This document shows positions 10,693-26,685 of a DNA stretch of 64,000 bases, one piece after another (positions within the stretch are counted from its first letter, which is position 1; each line of letters opens with the position of its first letter). The stretch comes from Bacillota bacterium (GTDB lineage: Bacteria > Bacillota > Ch66 > Ch109): NCBI GenBank assembly GCA_050952625.1, contig JBMNLH010000001.1, forward strand, positions 32,001 to 96,000, written 5' to 3'. A program made the translations under genes and the position numbers. Below the pieces are notes generated by a model. The model did not search any database, was not told the origin of the DNA, and worked only from the letters and a program-made list of their open reading frames with translations.

Positions 10693-11111
10693 TTGACAGT
10701 AGCTCCTCAGGTCATTTCGCAGCACCAGCAAAACAAGAATACCAAAGCCACTGTGTTAAATGCAGGTCATAATTGACACAAAATGGATAAAAAATATATT
10801 CTCGGAGCACCCTCAAAAAAGAGAAAAATTGCACAAAACGTCGAATGGAAATAAACACATGCCTTATCATATATTAGCAATAATAGCTATTGTTATGCCC
10901 TATTCTTTACTGCCGAGGCTTCCAAGTCAGTTATATTCCTGCCTTAATTAATTATACGAAGCAGAGGTGAGTTTTGGGGGGCTACCGATTGGCTAATGAC
11001 AAAAAAATAAATTAATCATGTATAACATTTTATGAAAAAGATGAACTGCACTACATCAGCCTTATCACAATCACATCTTAGCAATTCATAAGATGTTTAT
11101 TAATCTCTGCA

Positions 11112-13472
11112 TTGAAATGGGGTTATATGTTGGATAATAACAAAACCAATCAGATAACAAATAAAAACGCCCGGTTTAAAGTATTACTGATGGCCTTCAG
11201 TCTATTGATTATCATTATGTCATTTACCGGGTTCGTCAACTATATGACTTTTGCGGATAATTACAATAATTCTTTAGCCAGCACCTACTCAGTTGCCGGA
11301 AACGAGTTAGTTAGAAAAATTGAGTATGCTCTGCTCTATGGCAAACCAATCGAAAATTACTATGGCATGAATGAAACATTGAATGAATTAAAAGAGGTTA
11401 TTCCCGAGGTTGGAGAGGTAAATATTGTTTCTCCTGACGGTACCCTTATGTACGATTTAAGCGGTTTTGTCAGGGATAGACGCTTACCTGACGATTTATT
11501 AAAAGCGGCTGCCTTTCAGCAGGGGACATTAAATGAAAATTTAAGCTACCAGTTTTATGAAAATAACACTTATGTGTTTATCAAGATTAAGGATAGTACG
11601 GCACAGCATGTGGCTAGCTTAGCCATGGTTTTTCCCGAAGGTACTTTTCTGCACGCAAACTTTGAAGCTGCCTTTTCCCAGTTTAGTAGTTCCTTTTCCA
11701 AACAATTGGTGGGGTATCTTTTAGGTATTGTACTGCTGGCGATGTTATTGTTATTCCTTATTTTCCTTAAGACTACAGTTTATAATGAGGCTAATTCACT
11801 AAATACCAAGAAAATCTTAATTATATTTATTGCCGTGTTAGGTTCGGCCCAACTTATGTATAGTGGGGTGAACTATTATCTATTTAAAAATGCCTATGTC
11901 GACATGGCATATACTAGCAAGAATTTTATTGAGAATACAATTGAAAAAAATGTGACCGGTGTGTATGCCAAGGGACTAAGCTTGCAAAATATCGAAGGTT
12001 TCGATGCATATCTTGACTCAATCAAAGATAGTATCGCGCAGATTGAGGATATTACTTACGAGATAAATCCGGCAAACTCTGAACAGATCAGCCGGTTTAA
12101 TGCGCTCATTTCTAATGATTACATAAATCAACAAATGTCCAAAATTCTACTGGATATGTTAACGGTCTTAATTATATCCATCTTCTTTATGATTGAGCTA
12201 ACCTTACTGGCGGTTGTCATTATGACCAGGGGGCCAACTTCTGCCTCCCGGCAGTTGGAAACTGACATCGATATAACCAGCAGTCATCGGTTAGTCCGGG
12301 CTTTGGTGTTCTTTATTAGTTTAAGCACCTTTATGTCTCTTACTTTTGTACCGATTGTGATGAAAAATATTTATCAACCTTTCCTGGGATTACCTAGAGA
12401 TGTGGTGTTAGGATTGCCACTTTCAGCAGAAATGCTGGGTGGGATTCTAGCCATTATTTTGGCTGGCCGGTCAATTAATAAAAGCAGTTGGCAGCAGGTC
12501 TTTTATCTAGGGGCCGTGTTCTTAGCAGTCGGTAATTTACTATCAGGATTAAGTGATACGGTTATTGCTTATACCCTTTCACGGGCGGTAGCTGGTTGGG
12601 GTTCCGGTTACATTTTAATAACTATCCGTACCCTGGCGGTATCATTACCGGACCGAACGGTCGCTATTGCCGAATTTTCGGCCGGTTCGATTGCTGGATT
12701 GAACTGTGGGGCCGTAATTGGGGGTATGTTGGCTGATCGGATTGGATATAGCGCGGTTTTTTGTATCGCCGCTGTTACCGTAGCCTTTTCCGTTTTCTTC
12801 GTTTATCGGCTAATGCCCGGTTATACAATTGAAGCGAAAGGAACCGGCAGCAGTTCGGTGATGGCCAACTTGGTTAATCTTATTACAGACAAGAAAGCCA
12901 TGGTATTTCTTGCCTGCATCTTTATCCCCTACTTTGTTGCGGGAGCATTTCTGGATTATTACTTTCCTCTATTTGCCTCAAGCAATAACCTTTCCCAAAG
13001 TGACATTAGTCGAGGTATTCTGCTGAATGGTCTATTCGTAATCTATCTGGGTCCGGTTTTAAGCCGATTGCTCTCAGACAGACTAGGTAACACTAATGGG
13101 ATGGTCGTATCTGTACTGATTGTCGTTTGTGCCTTAGGAACCTTCATTATGTTTGGCAATATTCCGGCAGCCTTTGTGACGATTATTTTATTAGGGATTG
13201 CCGATAGCTTTGGCGTGGCCATGAAGACAAATTATTTTTTGGGTTTAAACGGAATCAAAAATTTAGAACTCAATCAGGGGATTGCTGTATTTAGCGGGAT
13301 GGTAAATTTGAGCAGAATGGCGGGACCGATTGTATATGGCTTGGCGTTATCTTTGGGAATGAGAATGGGGGTGGGGATAATTGCGCTTGTGATATTTGTC
13401 TTATTGCTGGTGTTTGTCTTTGTTACCAAGGTTACGTCTGAGAAAAGCGATGCTTTTACGGTTGGAAGTTAA
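11112..13472 (+). CDS. MFS transporter with an extended N-terminal extracytoplasmic/sensor-like region
   Basis: C-terminal ~400 aa with 12 TMs and GGMLADRIG, SRLLSDRLG; N-terminal TM-loop-TM modules. Confidence 0.75.
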   Translation: MKWGYMLDNNKTNQITNKNARFKVLLMAFSLLIIIMSFTGFVNYMTFADNYNNSLASTYSVAGNELVRKIEYALLYGKPIENYYGMNETLNELKEVIPEVGEVNIVSPDGTLMYDLSGFVRDRRLPDDLLKAAAFQQGTLNENLSYQFYENNTYVFIKIKDSTAQHVASLAMVFPEGTFLHANFEAAFSQFSSSFSKQLVGYLLGIVLLAMLLLFLIFLKTTVYNEANSLNTKKILIIFIAVLGSAQLMYSGVNYYLFKNAYVDMAYTSKNFIENTIEKNVTGVYAKGLSLQNIEGFDAYLDSIKDSIAQIEDITYEINPANSEQISRFNALISNDYINQQMSKILLDMLTVLIISIFFMIELTLLAVVIMTRGPTSASRQLETDIDITSSHRLVRALVFFISLSTFMSLTFVPIVMKNIYQPFLGLPRDVVLGLPLSAEMLGGILAIILAGRSINKSSWQQVFYLGAVFLAVGNLLSGLSDTVIAYTLSRAVAGWGSGYILITIRTLAVSLPDRTVAIAEFSAGSIAGLNCGAVIGGMLADRIGYSAVFCIAAVTVAFSVFFVYRLMPGYTIEAKGTGSSSVMANLVNLITDKKAMVFLACIFIPYFVAGAFLDYYFPLFASSNNLSQSDISRGILLNGLFVIYLGPVLSRLLSDRLGNTNGMVVSVLIVVCALGTFIMFGNIPAAFVTIILLGIADSFGVAMKTNYFLGLNGIKNLELNQGIAVFSGMVNLSRMAGPIVYGLALSLGMRMGVGIIALVIFVLLLVFVFVTKVTSEKSDAFTVGS

Positions 13473-13517
13473 TTGCACTTTTATTTTAAATTTTAATGAA
13501 AATCGAGGTCTTTTGAA

Positions 13518-14663
13518 ATGAATCAAATGACAAAGATACTTTTAACATGTATTTTTTCACTATTCATTTTAACTGGATGCGTTGAAAGCCAATTAGCCAT
13601 CCAAAGGGAAAAAGACGCGGGGCAGGGTGAACAGATTGTTGTCGGCGTGCCGGTCCCCCTAGAATTTGCCCGGGAAAATACTAAATTTTTACAAGGCTTA
13701 GATTTAGCCCTGGAAGATATCAACGCGGAGGGGATTAACGGTAAGAAAATTAGTTTGGAAGTCGTAGATGACGAAGGAAATTTTAAAACTGCCGTTGATG
13801 TCGCCCAGCAGTTTAGCCAGAATACCCGGATGGCCGCCGTGATTGGGCATTGGTATTCTGATATTTGCCTGCCGGTAGCCAATATATACGAAGATGCCGG
13901 GATGTTGATGGTGGTTCCCACTGTCTCCAATCCGGAGCTGACAGAAAAAGGATATAAATATGTCATCCAGAGTATTACCAATGACAAAAAAATTGCCGAA
14001 AAAATGTGTGCTCATGCTAAAAACATGGGATATAAAAGAGCAGTTATTTGTTATGAAGAAAGTTCTTATGGTAAAAATCTGGCTGAGGCCATCGAAAAAG
14101 AGGCAGCCGCCAACAATATCAAGATTGTTGATAGAAGTTCCGGTTTAGTAACTGAAGAGCAGTTTAAAAAAGCCTGCGATAAGTGGAAAGCCCTGGAGTA
14201 TGAGGCAGTACTATTAGCCCTGAATATGCCTGAGGGAGCTACTTATATCAGCGAACTTAAAAAAATGCACCAAAATATTGGGATTATTTCGGCTGACGGA
14301 TTAGATGTGAGTAATTTCATTGAGTTGCTTGGCAAAGATGCCGAGGGAGTAGTAATTATTACTACCTATAGTCCTTATAGTAAAAGACGCGAGCTAGATG
14401 AATTTACTCAGAAATATCAAGTGAAATACAATGAAGAACCAGATGTCTGGGCAATCCAGGGGTATGAATCGCTGCAGCTTATTGCCCACGCCATAAAGCA
14501 AACCAATAGCGTTTCAGCGGCAGCCTTAGCCGATTATTTGCGTTCTATGGATCCCTGGCTCTCTGTCTCAGGGAATATTCATTTTAACGAGTATGGAGAA
14601 ATCATTGGAAGGGATGTTTACCAGAAGGCGGTTGTTAACGGACAGTTTCAGTATCTTGATTGA
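13518..14663 (+). CDS. LivJ-type (periplasmic binding protein type 1) substrate-binding lipoprotein
   Basis: Lipobox LTGC; LALEDINAEGINGKKI..VVDD and AVIGH motifs. Confidence 0.85.
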   Translation: MNQMTKILLTCIFSLFILTGCVESQLAIQREKDAGQGEQIVVGVPVPLEFARENTKFLQGLDLALEDINAEGINGKKISLEVVDDEGNFKTAVDVAQQFSQNTRMAAVIGHWYSDICLPVANIYEDAGMLMVVPTVSNPELTEKGYKYVIQSITNDKKIAEKMCAHAKNMGYKRAVICYEESSYGKNLAEAIEKEAAANNIKIVDRSSGLVTEEQFKKACDKWKALEYEAVLLALNMPEGATYISELKKMHQNIGIISADGLDVSNFIELLGKDAEGVVIITTYSPYSKRRELDEFTQKYQVKYNEEPDVWAIQGYESLQLIAHAIKQTNSVSAAALADYLRSMDPWLSVSGNIHFNEYGEIIGRDVYQKAVVNGQFQYLD

Positions 14664-14689: not shown

Positions 14690-16033
14690 ATGTCAGAGAA
14701 TAAGCTTTTTAGAAAAGTATCCCTGGACCGCTTATCCTCGCCAGAAGAACTGGACCAGCGGTTAAAGGTGGTTTCACCTATCGGATGGGTTGCTCTGATT
14801 GCGGTTGGTATCCTGATAGCAGCGGCTCTAGTTTGGGGATTTTTAGGCAGCATTGCTGATAAGGCTACCGGTCAAGGGATTATTATCTCTAGCGGGGGCA
14901 TTACCGGGATTGTTCACCATGCTAATGGACAGGTAACCGACGTAAGTGTAAACGACGGTGATTATGTTCAAAAAGGTCAGGTAATCGCTCGGATTCAGCA
15001 AACCGAACTTATTGAAGAGATCAACAAATACAAACAGGACCTAGAGGCGGCGCGGGCTATTGATCTGGACAATCTCGAATTGAACAACAGCCGGCTCAAT
15101 TTTAATATCTATGGGAAAATTGGCGAAATTTATAAAAACTTTCAAGCAGCCGAAGCTAATCTCGAGACGCAAAGAACCTATTACAATACGCAAAAAGCTC
15201 AAGCTGAGTATGAGTTGGAGCAGGCCAGGATTCAATATGAAGATAGTCTGGAGAAATACAATAAATACAAAACCCTATACGAAAGTGGAGCGGTATCAGA
15301 GAGAGAATTGACTGATTATGAGCGACAATTGCAAGTTCATGAATTAGCCTACAAAACTAAACAACAAAACTATGTTCAATTGCCCTTATCCCAGTTGCTC
15401 GAGGCAGAAGCTAATTTTGAGGCCCAAAAGCAGTGGCTTAAAGATACCATTACTGTTTCGATTCTAGATCTGGAAAATAATATTGCCAAAATGCAACGAG
15501 ATTTAATGACTAATAGTGAGATAATTGCCAGTGTTTCGGGTCGGATCCTGGAGTTGAGGTTTAAAAAAGGCGACATTGTTCAAGCGGGCAGTGTTATTTG
15601 CACGATTGCCGAAGAAAGAGCCCAAACTGATTCGCTGGAAGCAGTTATTTATGTACCGGTGGACCAAGGCAAAAAAATAACACCCGGTATGGAAGCCAAT
15701 ATCTCGCCGACGACAGTGAAAAAAGAAGAATTCGGCTTTATGCTGGGCAATGTTGTTTCTGTTTCTGAATTCCCATCTAGTGCCCAAGGAATGATGGTCA
15801 CGTTGGGTAACAGTGAACTAGTGCAACAGCTATCCAGAGAAGGTCCGCCCATTGAGGTTCGGGTGAAGCTGATCATGGATAGCAGTACCCCCAGCGGTTA
15901 TAAATGGTCCACCTCGCAAGGGCCACCGATTATTGTTGATGACGGTACTTTTTGTTTAGGGGAAGTAAAAGTTGAAGAAAAAAGGCCGATTAGTATGGTA
16001 ATCCCGTTTATTAAAAAGCTTTTGCCCATCTAA
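14690..16033 (+). CDS. NHLP bacteriocin system secretion protein (HlyD-like)
   Basis: LFRKVSLDRLSSPEELD N-terminus, KKEEFG, SGYKWS and RPIS.VIP motifs of the TIGR03794-type family. Confidence 0.9.
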   Translation: MSENKLFRKVSLDRLSSPEELDQRLKVVSPIGWVALIAVGILIAAALVWGFLGSIADKATGQGIIISSGGITGIVHHANGQVTDVSVNDGDYVQKGQVIARIQQTELIEEINKYKQDLEAARAIDLDNLELNNSRLNFNIYGKIGEIYKNFQAAEANLETQRTYYNTQKAQAEYELEQARIQYEDSLEKYNKYKTLYESGAVSERELTDYERQLQVHELAYKTKQQNYVQLPLSQLLEAEANFEAQKQWLKDTITVSILDLENNIAKMQRDLMTNSEIIASVSGRILELRFKKGDIVQAGSVICTIAEERAQTDSLEAVIYVPVDQGKKITPGMEANISPTTVKKEEFGFMLGNVVSVSEFPSSAQGMMVTLGNSELVQQLSREGPPIEVRVKLIMDSSTPSGYKWSTSQGPPIIVDDGTFCLGEVKVEEKRPISMVIPFIKKLLPI

Positions 16034-16064: not shown

Positions 16065-18224
16065 TTGCAGGAAACGCAAAAAAGAAGAAAAGTGCCTTCC
16101 ATCTTGCAGATGGAAGCAGTGGAATGCGGTGCTGCATCCCTGGCAATGATTTTTGCCTATTACAAAAAACACCTGCCTCTGGAGAAACTAAGGGTTGATT
16201 GCGGGGTTACTCGTGACGGAGTAAAGGCTAGCAATATCTTAAAAGCTGCCCGGAGACATGGATTTACCGCCAAGGGATTTAGAAAAGAACCGGCCGAGTT
16301 AAAAAATGTGCCTCTGCCGGCGATTATTCATTGGAATTTTAATCACTTTGTTGTCTTAGAAGGATTTCGCAAAGACAAGGTTTATATTAATGACCCGGCT
16401 AGTGGCCCTAGAGTCATTTCCGAAGAAGAATTTGACTTGGCCTTTACCGGGGTAATCTTGACCTTTGAACCGGGACCAGAATTTCAGCCAAGCGGTAAAA
16501 AGCCAAGCTTTGTTGCTTCATTAAAAAATTGGCTGACCGGTTCCAAGGCAGTCATCACCTATTTAGTGCTTATCGGGCTATTAATGGTCATACCCGGTCT
16601 CATAGTGCCGGCCTTTAGCAAGATTTTTATTGATGACGTTTTATTAGGCGGCAAAGGTGATTGGCTTAAACCCTTGCTTTGGGCGATGGGACTAGTTGTC
16701 GTATTGCAGGCAGTCTTGACCTGGTTGCAGCAGCATTACCTGTTGAAAATGGAGACCAAAACAGCGGTAACCAACGCAGGGAAATTCTTTTGGCATATTT
16801 TTCGGTTACCAGTCGTCTTTTTTCAACAGCGCTCAGTTGGCGATATATCCAACCGCATGCAAAGTAACGATCAGGTAGCGGCCTTTTTATCGCGAGATCT
16901 AGCGGAATCAGCCATTGGTTTTTTAACGATTGGGTTTTACTTAATTGTCATGCTGCAATACAGTGTATACCTTACCCTGGTATCTCTTGTAGCTGCTGCT
17001 TTAAGCATCGCCTACCTATATTATTCGTCCAACAAGATTGAAACTTTAAACAAAAAACTCTTACAGGACAAAGGTAAGGTAATGGGTTTCTCAATATCCG
17101 GGTTATATATTATTGAAACGCTAAAAGCTTCGGCCTCAGAGTCGGATTTTTTTGCCAAATGGTCGGGCTACCATGCTAAAGAGATCAATGCCCAACAAGG
17201 CCTGGGCAAAACAACCCAAGTCTTGTTCCACTTACCTGAATTTCTGACTCAGTTTGCTGACGTAATTGTTCTATTTGTGGGCGGTCTGATTATCATCAGT
17301 GGCGACTTAACCATCGGTTCATTGATTGCTTTCCAAGGTCTGGTCGGCAATTTTATGGCACCGGTAAATGGGCTAACGCAAATGGGGATGAAAATGAAGC
17401 AAGTGCAAGGGGATATTAACCGTTTGGAAGATGTTTTTAAGTATAGCATTGATGAGAATGTCAGCCGGGAAGTGCCAGTTGCCAAAGAAGACGATGCACA
17501 CAAAAAGCTGGAAGGTTACGTCGAAATAAAAGACTTGTCATTTGGTTACAATCCCTGGGATCCCCCGCTGATCGAGAATTTTAGTCTGACCCTTAAACCT
17601 GGTTCCCGGGTTGCCTTAGTCGGCAGCTCCGGGAGCGGTAAAAGTACAGTAGCCAAGTTGATTGCCGGTATTTACCAGCCTTGGTCCGGCGAAATACTAT
17701 TTGACGGACAAAGCAGGGAACAGATACCACGCAATGTGATAACCAACTCTATGGCCGTAGTTGACCAGGATATTACCTTATTTGACGGAACGATCAGGGA
17801 AAACCTCGCCATGTGGGACAGCACTATTCCTGAAGCCAGCATTATTCAAGCAGCGAAAGATGCCTGTATTCATGATGATATAGCCATCAGAGACCATGGT
17901 TATGACCATAAAGTCAGTGAAGGCGGGGCTAATTTTAGCGGCGGTCAGAGGCAGCGGCTGGAAATTGCTAGGGCATTGGCTGGAAATCCATCAATCTTGA
18001 TCCTTGACGAGGCAACAAGCGCGCTGGACGTACATACAGAAAACCTGGTGGACCAAAACATTCGCCGTCGGGGTTGTACCTGTGTGATTGTCGCCCATCG
18101 TTTAAGTACAATTAGGGATTGTGATGAAATAATTGTCATGGACCGGGGTAAAATCGTTCAACGCGGCACGCACGATCAATTAAAAAATATCGAAGGGCTT
18201 TATGCACAGCTGATCGGTGCTTAA
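16065..18224 (+). CDS. NHLP export ABC transporter with C39 peptidase, permease and ATPase domains
   Basis: ILQMEAVECGAASL (catalytic Cys), HWNFNHFVV, Walker A GSSGSGKS, FSGGQRQR, ILDEATS. Confidence 0.92.
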   Translation: MQETQKRRKVPSILQMEAVECGAASLAMIFAYYKKHLPLEKLRVDCGVTRDGVKASNILKAARRHGFTAKGFRKEPAELKNVPLPAIIHWNFNHFVVLEGFRKDKVYINDPASGPRVISEEEFDLAFTGVILTFEPGPEFQPSGKKPSFVASLKNWLTGSKAVITYLVLIGLLMVIPGLIVPAFSKIFIDDVLLGGKGDWLKPLLWAMGLVVVLQAVLTWLQQHYLLKMETKTAVTNAGKFFWHIFRLPVVFFQQRSVGDISNRMQSNDQVAAFLSRDLAESAIGFLTIGFYLIVMLQYSVYLTLVSLVAAALSIAYLYYSSNKIETLNKKLLQDKGKVMGFSISGLYIIETLKASASESDFFAKWSGYHAKEINAQQGLGKTTQVLFHLPEFLTQFADVIVLFVGGLIIISGDLTIGSLIAFQGLVGNFMAPVNGLTQMGMKMKQVQGDINRLEDVFKYSIDENVSREVPVAKEDDAHKKLEGYVEIKDLSFGYNPWDPPLIENFSLTLKPGSRVALVGSSGSGKSTVAKLIAGIYQPWSGEILFDGQSREQIPRNVITNSMAVVDQDITLFDGTIRENLAMWDSTIPEASIIQAAKDACIHDDIAIRDHGYDHKVSEGGANFSGGQRQRLEIARALAGNPSILILDEATSALDVHTENLVDQNIRRRGCTCVIVAHRLSTIRDCDEIIVMDRGKIVQRGTHDQLKNIEGLYAQLIGA

Positions 18225-18243: not shown

Positions 18244-20931
18244 TTGACCTTGAGTTTTATTGACCGTTTGCAATTCAACCAGATCCAAGCCGAAGGCAAT
18301 AAACCAATACTGTTAACGGACCAGAAAGTATGGCTTGTTAAAGCCGGCAAGGTAGACCTATTTATTGCCCGAGTAATGAACGACGGGATAACCGGCCGCA
18401 GAGAATACCTGTTTTCGGTTGGACCGGGTGATCTGTTTCTAGGATTATCCCCCCATATTGTGCCGGAAGGAGAATTTGGTCTACTGGCGGTAGGGCATAC
18501 CGGCACTATGTTGCTAGAATGTGATGTGCAGCAATTAGCCGTGATCAAAGATGAGCCGGACAGGCAGGAAATAACCGACCGGCTCAGGCACTGGACCGAA
18601 AAGTGGGAAATAGCCGGGATCAAGGCAGATTATCAATTTGACTGGGCAGCAACCTTGCCATTTGAACAAGTGGCCGTTTTTAATCAATCTGCTTTTACTC
18701 AAGCCCTGGCAATGTTGCTTGCTAAGTATCAGCAAGAAGAATTTAGGTATAAGCTTAAGGATGAAAAAGATCAATCTCATATGAATACTGGGCTGCGCCG
18801 GCTGATGAACACCTTGAATCTTAAAGATCGGGACAGCCTGGGGACTGAAGAGCTGGCGATCAATAACCTGCTCTTTAAAGCGTGTCTGGCGGTGGGTAGA
18901 GCCAAAAAGATTAAGATAGTACCATCCTACGGCCTGAAAAAAAATAGAGCGGATTCAAAAGACCTATTAGGGGATATTGCCCAAGCATCACAAATTAGGA
19001 TCCGGCAAATTATTTTAAAAGATAACTGGTGGAAAGAAGACAATGGAGCCCTGCTGGCCTATAAGGAAGCAGATGGCCAACCAGTAGCCTTGCTGCCTGT
19101 TTCACCAACCAAATATCGTTTATACGACCCGGCTGATGACAGTCAGGTGCTGGTAGATAGCCGAGTGGCGGAGACGATCAAGGCTCAGGCTTATACTTTT
19201 TATCGTCCGTTACCCGCCAAGGCTATTACAATAAAAGACTTGCTCCGGTTTTTAGCGGAGGGCATTTGGAAAGCAGACGCGATGACTGTAGTAGCGATGG
19301 GTATCCTGGGTGGCTTGTTGGGGATGCTTACACCAGTGGTAACCGGGATAATCTTCGACCGGGTAATCCCAGATGGTGAAAGACTGCTATTGACCCAAAT
19401 CGGGTTTTTACTGATGGCAATTGCCCTGACTACCTTTGCCTTTAATCTAACCCGGGGTTTTGCGATGCACCGGATCGAAGGGAAAGCGGAAGCGGACCTG
19501 CAAGCCGCTGTATGGGACCGGTTAATTAGTTTGCCTGTGCCCTTTTTTAAGGACTATACTGCCGGCGAATTAGCCGGTCGGGCAATGGGCATCAGCCAGA
19601 TTAGAAGCATTTTATCCGGTGCAGTGGCCAATACCATGATTTCCGGTATCTTTTCGATATTCTATTTTATTCTGTTGTTTTATTACAGTTGGAAACTAGC
19701 ACTTATTTGTACCCTGATTGTGCTTGTTGTCGTGGCGATATCGCTCCTGTTTGGCTACTTGCAAATCCGCTATGAACGACAATTAGTCGATTTAAACAAC
19801 ATGCTGGCGGGGAAAGTTTTTGGCCTGTTAAGCGGGGTTAGCAAAATAAAAACCTCGGGTGCCGAAAAAAGAGCTTTTAATATTTGGGCGCAGGATTTTG
19901 GTCAAGTCAGAGATATTACCTATCGCAAAGAGAACCTAGGCAATAAAATGGCAGTTTTTAATTCGACGGTCAAGATTATTGCCACGGGGATTATCTTTTT
20001 TGCCATGATGAAAATGCAAGGGATAAACTTGGGTGCTGGCAAATTTATTGCTTTTAACTCAGCATTCGGCAGCTTTTTAGGGGCAATGTTAGAGATATCC
20101 GGCGTTGTCCTGCAGCTCAATGTCATTAAACCGCTATACGAAAGGACCAGGCCGATTTTAGAAGCCTTGCCGGAGTACGATCAGCAAAAAGTTGATCCTG
20201 GTGAAATTGAAGGCAATATCGAAGTTAGTCATGTTAATTTCCGTTATCAGCCCGACGGTCCCTTGATCCTGAATGACGTGGTGCTAGAGATAAAAAAAGG
20301 TGACTATGTGGGTATTGTTGGTCCGTCCGGGAGTGGCAAATCTACCCTGTTTAGATTACTGCTCGGCTTTGAAAAACCAGAATCAGGGCAAATCTATTAT
20401 GATCAGCAGGATTTAGAGAATGTGGATATTCGGGCTATTCGTCGCCAGTTAGGCGTGGTTTTGCAAAACGGACAATTAATGGCCGGCAGCATCTTTGATA
20501 ACATCGTGGCGGCCAACCCCGGCTTAACGCTTAGTGATGCCTGGGAAGCGGCCCGGATGGCCGGAATGGAAGAGGACATTAAAAACATGCCCATGGGCAT
20601 GCACACCATGATCAGTGAAGCTGGCAGCACCCTATCAGGCGGCCAAAAGCAAAGGCTGCTCATTGCCCGAGCCATCATATCTCGACCGAAAATCCTTTAT
20701 TTTGATGAAGCAACTAGTGCCTTGGATAATAAAACCCAAAAGGTAGTCAGCGAGAGCCTGGCTAAATTAGGCGCGACGCGGGTCGTAATTGCTCACCGGT
20801 TAAGCACAATTGTCAATTGCAACAAGATAATTGTGATGGAGCGGGGACGAATAGTAGAGCAGGGGGGCTACCAAGAACTGTATGAAAAGGGCGGCCTTTT
20901 TACGCAGCTAGTTAACCGACAGTTGGCTTAG
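18244..20931 (+). CDS. NHLP export ABC transporter permease/ATPase, second subunit with N-terminal cNMP-binding-like region
   Basis: WLV..GKVDLF N-terminus, AYTFYRPLP, GPSGSGKS, LSGGQKQR, FDEATSALD. Confidence 0.9.
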   Translation: MTLSFIDRLQFNQIQAEGNKPILLTDQKVWLVKAGKVDLFIARVMNDGITGRREYLFSVGPGDLFLGLSPHIVPEGEFGLLAVGHTGTMLLECDVQQLAVIKDEPDRQEITDRLRHWTEKWEIAGIKADYQFDWAATLPFEQVAVFNQSAFTQALAMLLAKYQQEEFRYKLKDEKDQSHMNTGLRRLMNTLNLKDRDSLGTEELAINNLLFKACLAVGRAKKIKIVPSYGLKKNRADSKDLLGDIAQASQIRIRQIILKDNWWKEDNGALLAYKEADGQPVALLPVSPTKYRLYDPADDSQVLVDSRVAETIKAQAYTFYRPLPAKAITIKDLLRFLAEGIWKADAMTVVAMGILGGLLGMLTPVVTGIIFDRVIPDGERLLLTQIGFLLMAIALTTFAFNLTRGFAMHRIEGKAEADLQAAVWDRLISLPVPFFKDYTAGELAGRAMGISQIRSILSGAVANTMISGIFSIFYFILLFYYSWKLALICTLIVLVVVAISLLFGYLQIRYERQLVDLNNMLAGKVFGLLSGVSKIKTSGAEKRAFNIWAQDFGQVRDITYRKENLGNKMAVFNSTVKIIATGIIFFAMMKMQGINLGAGKFIAFNSAFGSFLGAMLEISGVVLQLNVIKPLYERTRPILEALPEYDQQKVDPGEIEGNIEVSHVNFRYQPDGPLILNDVVLEIKKGDYVGIVGPSGSGKSTLFRLLLGFEKPESGQIYYDQQDLENVDIRAIRRQLGVVLQNGQLMAGSIFDNIVAANPGLTLSDAWEAARMAGMEEDIKNMPMGMHTMISEAGSTLSGGQKQRLLIARAIISRPKILYFDEATSALDNKTQKVVSESLAKLGATRVVIAHRLSTIVNCNKIIVMERGRIVEQGGYQELYEKGGLFTQLVNRQLA

Positions 20932-20978: not shown

Positions 20979-21521
20979 GTGATCGACAGTATTCTAGTGC
21001 CGATGCAGACCGGGCAAACAGATGTTATGTCCGCGGTTTATATCGAATACTATAAAAAGTTATACAAATATATTCTTTATCGCGTCGGCGATCATAACGT
21101 AGCCGAAGATCTGGTTAGTGAAGTATTTGAAAAAATGTTGACTAATTATTCCACCTATGATGATCAAAAGTCCAAATTCAGTACTTGGCTGTTCGCAATT
21201 GCTCATAATACAGTTATTAACTATTACAAAAAAAGCCAACGCAGGTATACTTTGGGATTAATTAACTGTGAAAAAATAGAGTCAAAATACCAATTGGAGG
21301 ACCTGATTATTGATAAAGAATTAAAAGAGACCCTCCTGCGGGCAATCATGGCTCTAGATGAGCGGCAGCAAAATATAATAGCTTTTAAATTTGGGGCTCG
21401 TCTGACCAATCGGGAAATTGCTAAGATCCTGAATTTAACGGAAAGCAATGTTGGAACTATTATATATCGGTCATTAAAACGTTTAAAAGATATCCTGAAG
21501 GAACAAGGGGTCATCTATTAG
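20979..21521 (+). CDS. ECF sigma-70 factor
   Basis: AEDLVSEVFEK, FSTWLFAIAHN, region 4 LTNREIAKILNLTESNVGT. Confidence 0.92.
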   Translation: MIDSILVPMQTGQTDVMSAVYIEYYKKLYKYILYRVGDHNVAEDLVSEVFEKMLTNYSTYDDQKSKFSTWLFAIAHNTVINYYKKSQRRYTLGLINCEKIESKYQLEDLIIDKELKETLLRAIMALDERQQNIIAFKFGARLTNREIAKILNLTESNVGTIIYRSLKRLKDILKEQGVIY

Positions 21522-21548
21522 TCTAACTGGATAAAGAGGTGGTTAAAG

Positions 21549-21845
21549 ATGCTGGAAAACAATGGCTTAGAGGCATTTATTTCAGACCTTGACAAAATCA
21601 TATTCGGGGAGCCGATCGACCCCTCGGAATACGAGCAGTATGATACGGAACACAAAGAATTGCTATACCTGGCCCAGTTGCTGGCGCAGGCAGATTATAC
21701 CCCGGAAACCAGGGGCGCGAGGGAAAGGTTATGGTCAAAGATGCACAAAAACGGGGAACTGGAAGACGATGACCTTGATCTGGTGGCCGGCGGGGTTAAT
21801 TTGCATGAACTGTTTGAAAAAATAATTAAAAGGAAAGATATTTAG
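21549..21845 (+). CDS. putative anti-sigma-like small protein with a double-glycine leader motif
   Basis: Directly after the ECF sigma; contains ELEDDDLDLVAGG followed by a 16-aa tail. Confidence 0.6.
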   Translation: MLENNGLEAFISDLDKIIFGEPIDPSEYEQYDTEHKELLYLAQLLAQADYTPETRGARERLWSKMHKNGELEDDDLDLVAGGVNLHELFEKIIKRKDI

Positions 21846-21967
21846 TTGGGTGTTTTTGCGGCAATGGATTGTTTTATCAGCTGACGGGGTCGATTTGTTA
21901 TCGATAAGAAAAATCTCTGGAAACGCGAGATTAATGTGATACTTGATGGCTTCGGTTGTATTAGTAG

Positions 21968-23041
21968 TTGAAAAAAAATGAGGTATATGCCATGCCCAGT
22001 GCACAGTTATTATTTTTAAAAGACAATCAGTTTAATTATAGTGAAATCTTGGCCTGGGATGATATCCCTCTGCCAGATGAACCGTTTGTCGATGCTTGGC
22101 AAGAGTATATCCAGGATATTGCCCGCCAAGGTGCCTTGGATGCTTTGAGCAAAAGACTGGTTCAACTTCAGTTCCCCATTCAAGCGGGTATGAGCACTAA
22201 TCCCAATTACCTGCTAGCCACGAGAAGAGGTTTACCTACCACTACCATGCCGGAAGCGACCGGCACCCAGTTTGAGGATCCATCCAATTTAAAAGTATAC
22301 CTTCATCAGACTTTAGCCGGGCGAATTCCGGTAATTGAAACGAGCAATAGATCTGATTTTGAAACCCTGGTGCGGGTGTTTTCCCGCCGTAACGAACCGG
22401 TGCCTATCCCAGCCTCAATGGGTGCTTGTATGATTAAGGGCTATAACAATTGGGACCGGGTAGCTAAATACAAACAGCAGCAGGCAGAAAATTTTGATTT
22501 TAATCAAATGAAAGGACAAAAACATCTCTATCAGGACGTATTCTTAATTTTGACGGACAATGGCTATAGCGGGGTGCCGGCAGAAATGTTAGGGTTAGCT
22601 GAGGATGAGTGGCGCAGGCTATCAATGATAATTCGCCGGGAGCACGAAGCAACCCATTATTTTACCCTGCGTTGCCTAGGCTCCGCCAGGAACCATTTAT
22701 TAGATGAATTTATCGCTGATTACATGGGCATTGTTGCTGCCGCCGGCCGATATCGAGCTGATTGGTTTCTCTGCTTTATGGGTCTGGAAAAGTACCCGGC
22801 TTTTCGGTCTGGGGGCCGGCTGACAAATTATCTAAATAACGTCGAGCTATCTGAGCCAGCCTTTGAATTATTAAAAACATATGTGAAGCAGGCGGCGGAG
22901 AATTTAGAAAGAATTGGCCAGAAGTATGATGATCAGGTTTACACGGCGCGAGGAAAATATGAAATGCTCCTACGCTTAACCAAAACAAATTTAATGGAGT
23001 TAGCCGCTGCAGACGCCGAGGAAAGAATTTTTGGTTACTAG
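21968..23041 (+). CDS. HExxH-motif protein (DUF7005-like), putative RiPP modifier
   Basis: AGRIPVI...DFETLV...EPVPIPASMGA...NW and RREHEATHYFT...DEFIAD. Confidence 0.6.
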   Translation: MKKNEVYAMPSAQLLFLKDNQFNYSEILAWDDIPLPDEPFVDAWQEYIQDIARQGALDALSKRLVQLQFPIQAGMSTNPNYLLATRRGLPTTTMPEATGTQFEDPSNLKVYLHQTLAGRIPVIETSNRSDFETLVRVFSRRNEPVPIPASMGACMIKGYNNWDRVAKYKQQQAENFDFNQMKGQKHLYQDVFLILTDNGYSGVPAEMLGLAEDEWRRLSMIIRREHEATHYFTLRCLGSARNHLLDEFIADYMGIVAAAGRYRADWFLCFMGLEKYPAFRSGGRLTNYLNNVELSEPAFELLKTYVKQAAENLERIGQKYDDQVYTARGKYEMLLRLTKTNLMELAAADAEERIFGY

Positions 23042-23272
23042 GGATCAAGTGGGATAAATTCTAGCAAGCGGTTTGCTGGCTAAACATTTGGAAAGGAGGG
23101 GGTAACGCTTCCCAAGTGAAGATTAGACAAAAGTGCAGATAGAATGCGGGACAGATATCGATGCGTGCATTGGTATCTGTCTTGACCAAAAATGATGGGT
23201 GATCCCTTGATTAAGCAGCCCTTAGCTTCTGTCTATTATCGGGAAAAATAATGCTTAATGAGGTAAATTAAC

Positions 23273-24301
23273 ATGGAAGGCAATGTAAAACGGTATCTTG
23301 ACAGCATTGGCCCAAGTTTGCCGGCAGAGATTATTTCTCTGGAAACCAAACGAAAAATTGATAAAATGGCTGTTCTGTTCAGTGATTTTGCCGCCAGCGA
23401 ATATATCATGGAAACCAACCTTAATTCGGCGGTTGCCGAGGCAGATTTTTCGTTTCGGATTCTTACGTCAGAAAAGGACTGTTTAATGAAGGGATTTAAT
23501 AGTTTTAGTATCTCTGGCCTGGCGACTGACGCAACCTGGATGAAGGTGATTGACTTTGTGCACTTCTGGCCACCGGATATCCCGGATATTTGGCTGGAAA
23601 TGGATTACGGAGAGTTTGCCAAGGACGTACCGCAGCCCTGTTTTTTCTTTAACGCTACCCAAATCAAAGAAGGTACCGAAATAAATAACGACCTGTTGCA
23701 TAGTTCATTAAGCCGGTTGCTGGATTCTAGCCAGTTAGCGACAATATGGCCAAACTTGACCGAGATTATTCATCAACTACCGCCAGAAGTTGGTCTATTC
23801 CAAATAGGCACCATGCTCGCCCGCCATCAAGACCGGGTTAGGGTTTTTACCGCTGAACTAACTCAGGAGCAGACGTTAGCCTACCTGGCCAGGATTAATT
23901 GGCCGGGTGATTTTCCAAAACTGGAGCAGTTGTTTAATCTGGTGCATCCCCATAGTGATGGTCAGTATATCGTGGATTTTGATGTAACGAGGCAGGGGAT
24001 ATCGGAAAAAATCGGGATAAATTTTGGCCTGGCCAAAAAACAAGAATTGCCCGCCTTTTTAGCGAATTTAACTCGGCACGGATTATGCAATGAGGTTAAA
24101 CAACAGGGCGTTTTAGCCTGGTCAGGCAGCAAAGGGTGTTTTTTAGGGCCAGCGTATGGTTTCTCGGCTCTGGTAAAAGATATATCTCACTTTAAAATGA
24201 GTCTTATCCCTGAGGAAAGTGTGATGATGAAGGCTTATCTCCGGATAATGGGTATCTACTTAAAAGAATTATTCACAACCAGGACTGCTGGCAAATTGTA
24301 A
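23273..24301 (+). CDS. hypothetical RiPP-associated enzyme, possibly a prenyltransferase-barrel fold
   Basis: DIWLEMDY, QIGTML.R and C-terminal ISHFKM...KAYL; the fold is inference only. Confidence 0.45.
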   Translation: MEGNVKRYLDSIGPSLPAEIISLETKRKIDKMAVLFSDFAASEYIMETNLNSAVAEADFSFRILTSEKDCLMKGFNSFSISGLATDATWMKVIDFVHFWPPDIPDIWLEMDYGEFAKDVPQPCFFFNATQIKEGTEINNDLLHSSLSRLLDSSQLATIWPNLTEIIHQLPPEVGLFQIGTMLARHQDRVRVFTAELTQEQTLAYLARINWPGDFPKLEQLFNLVHPHSDGQYIVDFDVTRQGISEKIGINFGLAKKQELPAFLANLTRHGLCNEVKQQGVLAWSGSKGCFLGPAYGFSALVKDISHFKMSLIPEESVMMKAYLRIMGIYLKELFTTRTAGKL

Positions 24302-24331
24302 TGCTAAGCCAGGGAGGCTAAGATAGCTAAG

Positions 24332-24592
24332 ATGAACCAACCGGCTTATAAAGAAATGCAACAGATTATAAAGCAGGTAGCTCGAGAGGCGATGCTAGAT
24401 AAAAGCTACCGCGAGCTATGTTTAACTGACAGTCGGACCGCCCTCCAAATCATTATCGATAAAACCAATAGCACGATAGAAGTGCCGGACAATATCTTTT
24501 TTCAGGAAGAAGATGGGGAAAGCCTTGACAGTAATGGCATAGTTTACATTTTACCTCCATTTCTTAAACCATCGTGGCTTTTGAATTCATAG
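24332..24592 (+). CDS. NHLP-leader-like small protein lacking GG and core
   Basis: REAMLDKSYRELCLTDSRTAL...VYILPP resembles the NHLP KA..D..FR..LL.DP..AL...lvlP pattern. Confidence 0.5.
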   Translation: MNQPAYKEMQQIIKQVAREAMLDKSYRELCLTDSRTALQIIIDKTNSTIEVPDNIFFQEEDGESLDSNGIVYILPPFLKPSWLLNS

Positions 24593-24799
24593 ATCCAAGA
24601 GTTAGGCAAAGATGGTTCTTAAAAGCAAGGTCCTGGTCCCTTGCTTATAAGAAATAAATCCGGATGCGCTGGTAAACATGTAAAAAGGAGGCGGTATAAC
24701 TTACCGGTAAAGAGTTTAACTCATCGCGAACAAGGTGGTTAGATCTAGGTGCCAATTAAAACTGTTTTAAAATAATTTATTAAATTAAAAGGAGGATGT

Positions 24800-25135
24800 A
24801 TGCTAATGGAGCAAAAATTAATTCAATTACAAGCTAAGTTAGAGGCCGATACCGGTTTATTAGAAAAGTTATTTTCTTTGGAAAGCCCCGTAGAGGTGCA
24901 AAATTTCTTAAAAGATCAAGGTCTGGACTTCACCCTGGAGGAAATCAATGTTGTCAGAGAGGCACTGGTTAAGGTTTTGGAAAAAGGTGGCGGTGAGCTT
25001 TCCGATGAGGATCTAGAGAATGTTGCCGGTGGATCTATAACCGTAGCGGCTGTTGTAGGGATTGTTGGAGCAATTGGTGGGCTTGTTGGTGCCCTAGGAG
25101 GAGTCGTGGACCTAGCAGTTCGATCAAGATGGTAG
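24800..25135 (+). CDS. RiPP precursor 1, Nif11-type leader; core SITVAAVVGIVGAIGGLVGALGGVVDLAVRSRW
   Basis: LEAD..L.EKL...GLDFT.EE...ELSDEDLENVAGG; AGGAGG RBS. Confidence 0.88.
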   Translation: MLMEQKLIQLQAKLEADTGLLEKLFSLESPVEVQNFLKDQGLDFTLEEINVVREALVKVLEKGGGELSDEDLENVAGGSITVAAVVGIVGAIGGLVGALGGVVDLAVRSRW

Positions 25136-25358
25136 AGTTTATGTAATGATCGGTGGAGAAGAGATAGGAGCCCAATAAGCAACTATTTAGAAGCCATGAA
25201 TCAGATGAGTGTATTGAGGTTCATGGCTTTCCTCCAACCTTGTGTTGTTCAAATTAACTTATGCTTGGATGATCCGATTATTTACCCAAAAATAAGTTGA
25301 AACTTAACAATTGTAACGGTAGCAAAAACAATATATTAAAACTAATCAAAGAGGATGT

Positions 25359-25664
25359 TTGACCATAGAAGAAAAATTAACGCAATTAAAAACTAAGCTA
25401 GAGGCGGGATAAGAGCCTGGCAGAAAAGTTATTTGCTCTGGAAACCCCCGAAGAGGTACAAAGTTTCTTAAAAGGTGAAGGTCTGGAATTCAGCCTGGAA
25501 GAAATCAATACTGTAAGAGAGGCACTGGTTAAGTTTTGGAAAAAGGTGGCGGTGAGCTTTCCGAGGCGGATCTAGAAAATGTTGCTGGTGGATCACAACT
25601 ACTGATAAACCCGGATTTGTTAGAGATAAAGATAAATATACCAATACTCCCAACAAGATGGTAG
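25359..25664 (+). pseudogene. RiPP precursor 2, Nif11-type paralogue with two indels; core SQLLINPDLLEIKINIPILPTRW
   Basis: Manual translation is collinear with precursor 1; extra G near 25408 (gcgggataa) and missing G near 25533 (aagttttgg vs aaggttttgg); ELSEADLENVAGG intact. Confidence 0.8.
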
Positions 25665-25690
25665 AGTTTGAAAATTAATCAAAGGGATGC

Positions 25691-25759
25691 TTGACTACGG
25701 AAGAAAGAATAACTCAATTAAAAACCAAGTTCGATGCTAACTTATGCTTAACGGATTAG
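25691..25759 (+). pseudogene. truncated start of a third Nif11-type precursor
   Basis: LTTEERITQLKTKFDA resembles LTIEEKLTQLKTKLEA, then runs into the aacttatgctt repeat. Confidence 0.5.
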
Positions 25760-25790
25760 TAATTCTGATTTTAAATTAGGGGGTTATATT

Positions 25791-26144
25791 ATGGAAGAAA
25801 AAATTTTGTCGACTTTGGAGCTAAACGAAGTGATTGCCCAAAAAGCCAGGGAAAATGAGGAATTTCGCTTGGCTCTCTTAAATGATCCCAAGGCAGCCAT
25901 CGCAAAGGAATTTGGAGTTTTGTTGCCAGATAACACCAAAGTAGAGGTTCACGTGGAAAGCCCGAGAGTATTGCACTTAATAATCCCAGCCGGTAATGCC
26001 GATGAGTTGACTGATGACCAGTTGGAAGACGTTGCGGGCGGGGCACTTACAGATCTGCTGAAACTTATAGATCCTGGGAAAATGGTGATAGTGGCCTATG
26101 GAGTACCGTACCCTGGAGGCTCAGGCTGGAAATGGCCTTTTTAA
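25791..26144 (+). CDS. RiPP precursor 3, NHLP leader; core ALTDLLKLIDPGKMVIVAYGVPYPGGSGWKWPF
   Basis: KARENEEFRLALLNDPKAAI...VHVE...LHLIIP...ELTDDQLEDVAGG. Confidence 0.92.
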   Translation: MEEKILSTLELNEVIAQKARENEEFRLALLNDPKAAIAKEFGVLLPDNTKVEVHVESPRVLHLIIPAGNADELTDDQLEDVAGGALTDLLKLIDPGKMVIVAYGVPYPGGSGWKWPF

Positions 26145-26288
26145 ATTATAAATAAGCCGACTGGGTTATATTTAGAAGCCATGAATCGGGTGAGGTAGTT
26201 CATGACTTTACTCTAATTATGCGTGTTGTTGATGTTAACTTATGCTTAATGGATTAATAATTCTAATTTTAAATTAGGCGGTTATATC

Positions 26289-26666
26289 ATGGAAGAGAAA
26301 ATTTTGTCGACTTTGGAGCTTAACGAACTGATTGTCAAAAAAGCCAGGGAAAATGAGGAATTTCGCTTGGCTCTCTTACATGATCCCAAGTTAGCTATCG
26401 CAAAGGAATTTGGAGTGGTGTTTCCAGATAACACCAAGGTAGAGGTTCACGTGGAAAGCCCGAGAGTATTGCACTTAATAATCCCAGCTGGTAATGCCGA
26501 TGAGTTGACTGATGACCAGTTGGAAGACGTTGCGGGCGGAGCACTTCAAGATCTGGCGAATCTAGATCTGATGAAAAAATATGATGATTTTGGGAGACAA
26601 CAGATGATAATTACCAATTTAGTATCGCACCCTGGAGGCTCAGGGTGGAAATGGCCTTTTAGATAA
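26289..26666 (+). CDS. RiPP precursor 4, NHLP leader; core ALQDLANLDLMKKYDDFGRQQMIITNLVSHPGGSGWKWPFR
   Basis: Leader nearly identical to precursor 3; divergent core with the same C-terminal decapeptide. Confidence 0.92.
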   Translation: MEEKILSTLELNELIVKKARENEEFRLALLHDPKLAIAKEFGVVFPDNTKVEVHVESPRVLHLIIPAGNADELTDDQLEDVAGGALQDLANLDLMKKYDDFGRQQMIITNLVSHPGGSGWKWPFR

Positions 26667-26685
26667 GCGAGTTGGGTTTTAACTC

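Follow-up and report, generated by a model that had tools for sequence, protein, structure and literature searches.

Introduction

The release of an ECF sigma factor is usually triggered from outside the cell, by a signal that is relayed via a membrane anti-sigma factor. In the FlgM/sigma-28 flagellar checkpoint, the anti-sigma factor is itself an export substrate, and it controls transcription of the cargo of the machine that exports it.

Among the ECF groups described from Firmicutes, three (ECF232, ECF106 and ECF250) are of particular relevance here. Their putative anti-sigma factors are one-helix DUF4367 proteins with a conserved N-terminus, encoded at position +1, according to the accessible part of the supplement of PMC7826278; that part mentions no leader-motif variant for any of the three groups. 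The NHLM export systems, which handle Nif11- and NHLP-type peptide precursors, are defined by the families TIGR03793, TIGR03794, TIGR03796, TIGR03797 and TIGR03798 (PMC2887384, PMC4289311), and the word ‘sigma’ is absent from the main text of both surveys.

The stretch of DNA analysed here (64,000 nucleotides, referred to below as the window) carries an NHLM-type cluster in which an ECF sigma gene is followed by a gene for a soluble, 98-residue protein. That protein combines an N-terminal domain related to the DUF4367 putative anti-sigma factors with the leader motif that the C39 peptidase domain of an exporter recognizes in its substrates.

The sigma factor gene and the 98-residue protein

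The sigma gene (20979..21521, + strand) encodes a protein of 180 residues that matches Sigma70_r2 (PF04542) and r4_2 (PF08281) above the Pfam cut-offs and TIGR02937 above the NCBIfam cut-off. No sigma3 model was matched in the Pfam/NCBIfam scan, in keeping with the two-domain (sigma2 and sigma4) ECF layout of ∼180 residues, and an alignment and tree of relatives support the same assignment. The best-scoring NCBIfam family is the BldN-type TIGR02952, at 152 bits against a curated cut-off of 206.45 (relatives of the sigma factor score 148–192 bits), and membership of the BldN family was rejected because the score falls under that cut-off. Other members of the window sigma's family pair with DUF4367 membrane anti-sigma-like proteins, as indicated by the alignment and tree of relatives, and we would tie the factor to ECF232, ECF106 and ECF250 through its partner architecture and the likeness of its promoter.

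The gene for the 98-residue protein (21549..21845) begins after a gap of 28 bp on the same strand, with a purine-rich stretch, AAAGAGGTGG, just ahead of its start, and is present as a single copy in the genome. A preliminary description of this region, made from its letters alone, proved accurate in its account of both reading frames, of the leader motif ELEDDDLDLVAGG (residues 70–82; 21756..21794, + strand) and of the 16-residue tail VNLHELFEKIIKRKDI (residues 83–98; 21795..21842, + strand), and also in stating that the protein has no transmembrane segment (its highest 19-residue hydropathy is 0.6) and that its N-terminus is neither NHLP nor Nif11. The last point follows from the absence of any Pfam or NCBIfam family match, including TIGR03798 and TIGR03793 at E 0.05. 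Identity as a Nif11 or NHLP precursor was ruled out, as the leader-domain models fail on this protein while the cluster's own precursors, starting at 24800, 25791 and 26289, pass.

An AlphaFold2 model of the protein (pLDDT 67, pTM 0.39) contains helices at residues 4–18 and 33–50, which together form a hairpin (4–50), and a further helix across the leader motif (residues 73–80). A fold search with this model (pLDDT 67) returned generic helical matches only, with a best Z of 5.1; RsdA (3vep) stood at rank 46 (Z 3.8, rmsd 2.8, 46 aligned residues). The N-domain profile found no match in a sequence search of the PDB (best E 0.34), and the ESM Atlas returned only unnamed clusters of 68-residue proteins, under 0.9, with no structural match above the bar. 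When 40 family members were compared with Pfam, no family was matched by more than two of them.

Relationship of the N-terminal domain to membrane-bound DUF4367 proteins

A genome scan with the single 98-residue protein as query gave nothing useful, and neither did a search for longer proteins with the family alignment; the long relatives described here came from genome searches. When 401 genomes of the phylum were scanned with a profile built from 40 relatives, short proteins were matched over their full length, and so were, over positions 1–70 only, reading frames of ∼300–330 residues. When 12 close short forms were aligned by hhalign with 10 long forms alone, residues 1–56 were matched with a probability of 96.8 and an E-value of 2e-10; pairwise BLAST of the window's N-domain with one long form (L059) produced no alignment, so that the kinship to the long forms is one of profiles only. 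The six long proteins that were scanned all carry DUF4367 at their C-terminus, and all 14 long forms contain a hydrophobic segment (1.7–2.7, as compared with at most 1.44 in the short forms) and follow an ECF sigma gene.

The N-domain of the window protein (residues 1–56; 21549..21716, + strand), which is helical in the model and presumed to bind sigma, is therefore best regarded as an anti-sigma-type domain, because of its homology to the N-terminus of the DUF4367 putative anti-sigma proteins and its position after a sigma gene. The proposal that the 98-residue protein is an anti-sigma factor is strengthened by this homology to one-helix membrane proteins that follow the same family of sigma factors. 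In our best reading it is the anti-sigma factor of the adjacent ECF sigma, to which homology and position suggest that it would bind. The long DUF4367 forms are themselves putative anti-sigma factors.

The leader motif of the short forms occupies the place of the membrane helix in the long forms (residues about 70–110). Natural short forms of 80 residues lack the third helix that otherwise lies between the hairpin and the motif, and in these proteins the motif therefore comes directly after the hairpin. For class I anti-sigma domains, which combine a three-helix bundle with a fourth helix, sigma2 binding is ascribed to the last helix (PMC7406223, accessible portion). The 80-residue forms make it plausible that the motif helix may have a dual use, contacting either sigma or a C39 domain.

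Distribution and genomic context of the family

After removal of three duplicate loci (L012, L015 and L112), the N-domain profile yielded 42 short and 14 long forms. The leader motif is found in 42/42 soluble short forms versus 0/14 membrane-bound long forms. A C39 domain is encoded within the fetched stretch at 28/42 short versus 0/14 long loci, precursor genes are present within it at 37/42 (including L004 and L009) versus 0/14, and a RiPP setting (an exporter, precursor or DUF7005 gene) surrounds 41 of the 42 short forms and none of the 14 long ones, three of which lie on short contigs (1.8, 2.9 and 10.8 kb); many of these loci are close kin, so that the counts are not independent and Fisher values overstate the difference. 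An ECF sigma gene stands directly upstream of 41 of the 42 short forms (some of these sigma genes being frameshifted), which bears out the expectation of conserved sigma adjacency in homologues.

The exceptions are few. L101 has no sigma gene directly upstream, and L106 has no RiPP genes nearby and a tail of only eight residues. L118, which falls below the N-domain profile and is outside the tally of 42, likewise has no sigma gene directly upstream; its reading frame (L118:9073-9381) has a degenerate first helix and an intact GG motif, and is flanked by two large enzyme genes that we take, from their appearance, to be YcaO-like and LanM-like.

Retention of the motif was examined in several ways. 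An initial homologue search found it in 10/10 full-length homologues, the sequence without it being one 72-residue fragment. A profile of the N-domain only gave 22 matches across 401 genomes (15 known motif-bearing short forms and seven long reading frames) and 17 short matches in a protein database, of which 15 have the motif and the other two (62 and 72 residues) look fragmentary; this search for motif-less forms is not fully independent, because its profile derives from sequences that had themselves been found with the motif. Among 30 close relatives, conservation is highest in the motif columns (0.85), followed by the N-domain (0.59), the tail (0.45) and the linker (0.33). A chance origin of the motif was rejected, since a strict leader pattern matches 5 of the 29,978 six-frame reading frames of the genome, all five of them in the cluster, and the motif columns are the best conserved. 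The tail, which is moderately conserved in the close clade, ranges from eight to about 40 residues across homologues and is zinc-ribbon-like in 17/42.

A tree of the sigma factors (48 rows, comprising loci with an intact adjacent sigma gene; unrooted) places the 12 long forms all on one side of a branch (98/94). The clade of the window (17 rows, 100/100) holds 16 GG forms and a single AG form, and a separate clade of 15 rows (below, the Ala clade) contains AG or AA forms whose tails are mostly zinc-ribbon-like. The tree being unrooted, we infer rather than observe that evolution ran from the long to the short form. In four loci of the Ala clade (L048, L050, L053 and L054) genes for a 7TM histidine kinase and a response regulator lie directly upstream of the sigma gene, and in two others (L049 and L052) a large MalT-like ATPase regulator occupies that position, which suggests a second layer of control.

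The modification enzymes vary by cluster, and may be SPASM radical SAM enzymes, B12-dependent radical SAM enzymes, or ThcOx and YcaO; given these differences, the exporter and the leader are the shared elements. In L056 and L058 the ThcOx and YcaO genes are adjacent and the C39 exporter is encoded remotely in the genome, and L006 and L009 have no C39 domain in the fetched stretch; a C39 domain is encoded in 5/5 genomes that were checked. At L006:6712-9394 there is no HlyD or C39 gene, and the MFS gene is apparently fused to the one for the second ABC subunit; the sigma, anti-sigma and precursor genes remain.

The surrounding NHLM cluster

All of the following features lie on the + strand of the window. 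Upstream of the sigma gene are an NHLM HlyD-type secretion protein (14690..16033; TIGR03794, above cut-off), a C39 peptidase ABC transporter (16065..18224; TIGR03796, PF03412) that is the presumed partner of the leader motif, and a second NHLM ABC subunit (18244..20931; TIGR03797, above cut-off) that has no Pfam C39 match and ends 48 bp upstream of the sigma gene. The catalytic cysteine (Q..ECG) and WNFNH motifs of the C39 transporter are intact. An MFS protein with a large N-terminal extension precedes these genes. It and two solute-binding proteins accompany the cluster in many relatives (the positions in the window being 11112-14663 and 31348-32541), and import or sensing of the product is a possible role for them.

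Downstream of the 98-residue protein, the first gene past the predicted promoter encodes a DUF7005 protein (21968..23041; PF22541). It is followed by a 342-residue protein (23273-24301) with no Pfam or NCBIfam match that is conserved in close-clade clusters, and then by an 86-residue reading frame (24332-24592); both are candidates for novel modification proteins. The precursors comprise one of Nif11 type (24800..25135; ELSDEDLENVAGG; TIGR03798, above cut-off) and two of NHLP type (25791..26144, ELTDDQLEDVAGG, and 26289..26666; both TIGR03793, above cut-off). A third Nif11-type precursor at ∼25360-25661 is broken by frameshifts that split its leader (...ELSEADLENVAGG and then SQLLINPDLLEIKINIPILPTRW), and may be a pseudogene or an assembly error. 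The cores of the cluster's Nif11 precursors often end in RW or RGRW. The modification enzymes are a radical SAM/SPASM-TPR maturase (26686..28215) and a second radical SAM/SPASM enzyme (30110..31375), both identified by Pfam and NCBIfam, and between them lies a peptide arginase-like protein (28588-29373; NF052474, 191 bits, below cut-off). The 51-residue reading frame that closes the cluster (32567-32722) has a leader motif (ELADEELENVAGG), W is the last residue of its core, and it is probably a truncated precursor. Far from the cluster, a small reading frame with an NHLP-like leader end (LSDEQLDQVAGG; G000:C1:1449880-1450218, − strand) has no strong promoter site.

The leader motif compared with true precursor leaders

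The leader-helix residues bound by C39 domains are L(−12), L(−7) and V(−4), and a segment of 13 residues is enough (PMC6363468 and PMC6959990, accessible sections). The window protein has all three; its position −5 is hydrophobic, and −2 and −1 are both Gly. Across the 42 short forms, L(−7) is invariant, position −12 is L, I or M and position −4 is V, I or A; one further homologue, P0049, has Tyr at −7. The expectation that the motif would be conserved among homologues thus stands for the leader motif as a whole (42/42), and fails for Gly(−2), which is present in only 23/42, with Ala in the other 19. Precursor-like reading frames of the same loci, by comparison, have Gly at −2 in 72 of 72 cases under a search pattern that allowed Ala or Ser. 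The Ala(−2) forms are spread over three or more separate branches of the sigma tree; L008 is one such form within the window's clade, where 18/20 loci keep GG. The zinc-ribbon clade intermixes AG and AA types, with the AAG unit displaced by a residue with respect to V(−4); for variants ending in AA, a cryptic ClpX-type tag was considered as a possibility.

Two other positions set the short forms apart from the precursors: −5 is hydrophobic in 33/42 short forms versus 1/72 precursors, and −11 is mostly acidic in the short forms and Ser or Thr in the precursors. We read the pattern, from these sequences, as a sign that selection favors binding over cutting and that the helix has an additional hydrophobic face; the hydrophobic residue at −5 may form a second helix face that binds sigma.

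The canonical C39 cleavage sites are GG, GA and GS (PMC10885120, accessible portion). Such a pair is present at −2/−1 in the window protein and in 23 of its 42 homologues, and missing from 19/42. The cleft at the cut site is described as very narrow and specific for a double glycine in the accessible part of PMC6959990, and because of this cleft and of the GG/GA/GS consensus, the Ala(−2) forms look uncleavable. In the window's clade cutting may occur, because GG is kept in 18/20 loci and the catalytic motifs of the C39 domain are intact. C39 cleavage, as put forward in the preliminary description, thus fits the window's clade, and is weakened as a mechanism for the whole family by Ala(−2) in 19/42 forms. 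Two of its further suggestions lost ground. Export of the anti-sigma factor itself is weakened by topology, since GG divides a PCAT substrate into a leader ahead of it and a cargo behind it (PMC6959990, in the same part), which places the N-domain with the leader; export of the inhibitory domain in the manner of FlgM was rejected as unlikely on these grounds. Release of the tail as a signal peptide is a weak idea in view of the zinc-ribbon-like tails in 17/42 forms and of tail lengths from eight to about 40 residues.

Predicted promoters

A predicted ECF promoter, TGTGATAC-N13-TTGTAT, is located at 21935..21961 (+ strand) ahead of the modification and precursor genes, at a position that is conserved in relatives. 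In the close clade the pattern TGTG[AC]TA[CG]-N13-TTGTAT directly follows the anti-sigma gene in 18/20 loci, with a CGTG variant in the other two, and in the other short loci the corresponding position carries TGTAATA-N14/15-CGTATTA in 14/22 cases; the long loci have it in 0/14. A matrix trained on 16 sites, with the window left out, was scanned over the 2.9-Mb genome and returned two strong sites, the one at 21935-21961 of the window (30.0, the best in the genome) and one at G000:C2:82431 (29.1), the next site scoring 16.8. Allowing two mismatches, the promoter pattern has one match in the window against 1.2 expected by chance, which is not significant by itself; support for the promoter therefore comes from its positional conservation and the genome matrix scan, and not from that count.

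The second strong site directly precedes an orphan, frameshifted Nif11-type precursor (G000:C2:81855-82431, − strand), with a partial duplicate of its start upstream; this gene stands alone among what we take to be purine-synthesis genes.

The window's promoter (TGTGATAC / TTGTATTAG) differs from that of the Ala clade (TGTAATAC / CGTATTAAC). For ECF232 the accessible part of the PMC7826278 supplement gives TGTT(AAT) / CGT(ATTAAC), and the −10 element CGTATTAAC that is predicted for ECF232s1/s2 recurs in the promoters of the Ala clade and upstream of the sigma gene of one long form (L109).

The MFS-led exporter operon of the window ends with the sigma and anti-sigma genes. The ECF promoter element is absent from this operon, and a sigma-70-type promoter-like site (10773..10800, + strand) with 11/12 matches, a likeness to the consensus only, lies upstream of it. 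From this arrangement it appears that the exporter, the sigma factor and the anti-sigma factor come first, and that the cargo is placed under sigma. Part of the FlgM-like layout that had been proposed is thereby retained, in that a sigma-type promoter precedes the cargo genes and not the exporter operon; the other part is not, as the inhibitory domain is leader-side and its export unlikely. In the Ala clade the ECF element is also found before the exporter operon (L050, L053, L054 and L104) and, in two loci, before a radical SAM gene, and it lies upstream of sigma in L056, L058 and L107. Its presence before the exporter operon or sigma in some loci means that cargo-only logic is not universal, and that the sign of control may differ between loci.

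Three metatranscriptome runs from one sample, available as contigs, contain short pieces only within 22167-27573 (including the Nif11 precursor gene) and none on the exporter, sigma or anti-sigma genes; because contigs carry no information on transcript starts, strand or level, and because part of the window served to find the runs, we draw nothing from them.

Proposed mechanism and alternatives

We consider it highly probable that the anti-sigma factor reads the leader-binding machinery of the cluster, a claim that takes in the model preferred below together with the three alternatives discussed directly after it. In terms of origin, the membrane helix and outside DUF4367 domain of the Firmicutes family would have been swapped for a copy of the leader's C-terminal 13 residues. 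Sigma would transcribe the modification and precursor genes from the promoter at 21935-21961, a step that the sequence supports, and the exporter, sigma and anti-sigma would come from the upstream operon that lacks this promoter. The N-domain would keep sigma inactive, as its homology and position suggest, and the leader helix, judging from its motif, would dock in the hydrophobic groove of the exporter's C39 domain. Docking would be what selection keeps; cutting at GG may happen in the window's clade and would not be needed across the family. In the least certain step, an unoccupied exporter would pull the helix and the inhibitor off sigma, so that cargo production would wait until an exporter is in place with capacity to spare. 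Precursors, as they build up, would then compete for the C39 groove, the anti-sigma factor would return to sigma, and transcription would be switched off. We tentatively favor this decoy or partner switch, in which the protein would dock on C39 and free sigma when the exporter is unoccupied, with both the binding and the sign of control deduced from sequence. For the family at large we propose, with the same reserve, that a membrane sensor was swapped for a leader decoy that reads exporter occupancy from inside the cell, that its two-faced helix binds either sigma or C39 and so provides RiPP production with a secretion checkpoint, that it has repeatedly become uncleavable (Gly to Ala), and that some clades have added a zinc ribbon as a second input.

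Many membrane anti-sigma factors are activated via membrane proteolysis, and a cleavage switch would stand in for it here: C39 would cut after GG, removing the 16-residue tail, and the new C-terminus would destabilize the anti-sigma factor or mark it for proteolysis. The GG pair in 18/20 close-clade loci (23/42 overall), the intact catalytic motifs of the window's C39 domain and the ability of LahT150 to cut any substrate bearing the 13-residue motif (PMC6363468, accessible sections) all suit this explanation, which we nevertheless judge unlikely in view of Ala(−2) in 19/42 forms and at least three branches (L008 of the window's own clade among them), of the one-residue slip of the AAG unit against V(−4) in the zinc-ribbon clade, and of the narrow, double-glycine-specific cleft and GG, GA or GS sites noted above (PMC6959990 and PMC10885120, in part). 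Somewhat less likely again is a tether of opposite sign, by which the motif would anchor the sigma/anti-sigma pair on the exporter until precursors or released leader peptides displace it, the free anti-sigma factor is lost and sigma is switched on, in a positive feedback. In its favor, the motif takes the place of the membrane helix of the long forms (residues about 70–110), and promoters before the exporter operon (L050, L053, L054 and L104) or upstream of sigma (L056, L058 and L107) would suit an autoinducing loop; in the window, however, the precursors appear to depend on sigma's own promoter, so that the loop would need leaky expression to start, and a degradation signal was not identified. 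It is improbable that the partner is instead a leader-binding modification enzyme (radical SAM, YcaO or DUF7005), with the anti-sigma factor reporting free enzyme. That idea would account for L056 and L058, which have ThcOx and YcaO genes as neighbors and a C39 exporter encoded at a distance, and for L006 and L009, where the fetched stretch has no C39 domain, but between clusters it is the enzymes that change and not the motif, conservation falls on precisely the residues that C39 domains bind, all five genomes checked encode a C39 domain, and NHLP leaders engage enzymes via a folded leader (PMC12537861, accessible portion) that is absent from the 98-residue protein.

Two further explanations would remove the protein from this regulatory role or its motif from contact with the exporter, and we regard both as very improbable, to an equal degree. 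The protein might be a true precursor whose leader belongs to a new family that arose from an anti-sigma domain, the tail being the exported signal or product; the intact GG of the window and the partial conservation of the tail in the close clade accord with this, as does the recruitment of the NHLP and Nif11 leaders themselves from unrelated proteins (PMC2887384, in part). Its single-copy gene, however, directly follows sigma in 41/42 loci and lies upstream of the promoter that serves the precursors, and the Ala(−2) forms (19/42), the zinc-ribbon-like tails (17/42) and the eight-residue tail of L106 also tell against it. Alternatively, the motif might be vestigial, an acidic sigma-binding helix acquired by fusion with a precursor fragment that has lost its contact with the export machinery. 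Systematic departures from true leaders at −11, −5 and −2 point in this direction, as does the motif of the 80-residue forms, which comes directly after the hairpin like the sigma2-binding last helix of class I domains (PMC7406223, in part); retention of L(−12), L(−7), V(−4) and small residues at −2/−1 across distant branches, and the continued presence of 41/42 soluble forms among RiPP genes, argue against it.

Comparison with known systems

The regulator architecture is real and conserved, and apparently undescribed in the literature; a search found no description of an anti-sigma factor with a leader motif, most subscription papers lying outside its reach. The window's input appears to be internal, namely the state of the peptide export machinery, read by substrate mimicry. 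If this is true, export-coupled transcription would have evolved independently a second time, FlgM being the other case, and RiPP clusters would have a new mode of control. The promoter motif also finds orphan precursor genes, and removal of the anti-sigma factor would be an obvious route to switching on silent Nif11/NHLP clusters of anaerobes.

As in ECF232 (and ECF106 and ECF250), the sigma gene is followed by that of a partner with a conserved N-terminus, the long relatives have one helix and DUF4367, and the −10 element CGTATTAAC of ECF232s1/s2 is shared by the Ala-clade promoters and L109 (PMC7826278 supplement, in part). Unlike the partners of those three groups, the window's protein is soluble, has neither DUF4367 nor a membrane helix, and bears a RiPP leader motif, and its clade differs from ECF232 in using TGTG[AC]TAC / TTGTAT and in placing RiPP cargo genes behind the promoter. 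The cluster itself resembles described Nif11/NHLP export systems in its exporter trio, its Nif11 and NHLP precursors and its radical SAM enzymes; the pair formed by sigma and the 98-residue protein is not part of the NHLM system as described. With C39/PCAT substrates such as LahA, CtA and ComC (PMC6363468, PMC6959990 and PMC10885120, in part), the protein shares a helix bearing L(−12), L(−7) and V(−4) as well as, in the window's case, the GG pair, whereas its family departs from them in the hydrophobic −5, the acidic −11, the Ala(−2) of 19/42 members and the N-terminus of an anti-sigma family.

The likeness to FlgM is one of logic: the putative anti-sigma factor resembles an export substrate and would control transcription of the exporter's cargo, but it would do so with an ECF sigma and an ABC/C39 exporter in place of sigma-28 and type III export, its inhibitory domain is on the leader side and is unlikely to be exported, and many members of its family look uncleavable. 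We view the 98-residue protein not as a member of the FlgM family but as a DUF4367-type ECF regulator in a soluble variant, whose input is of a new kind.
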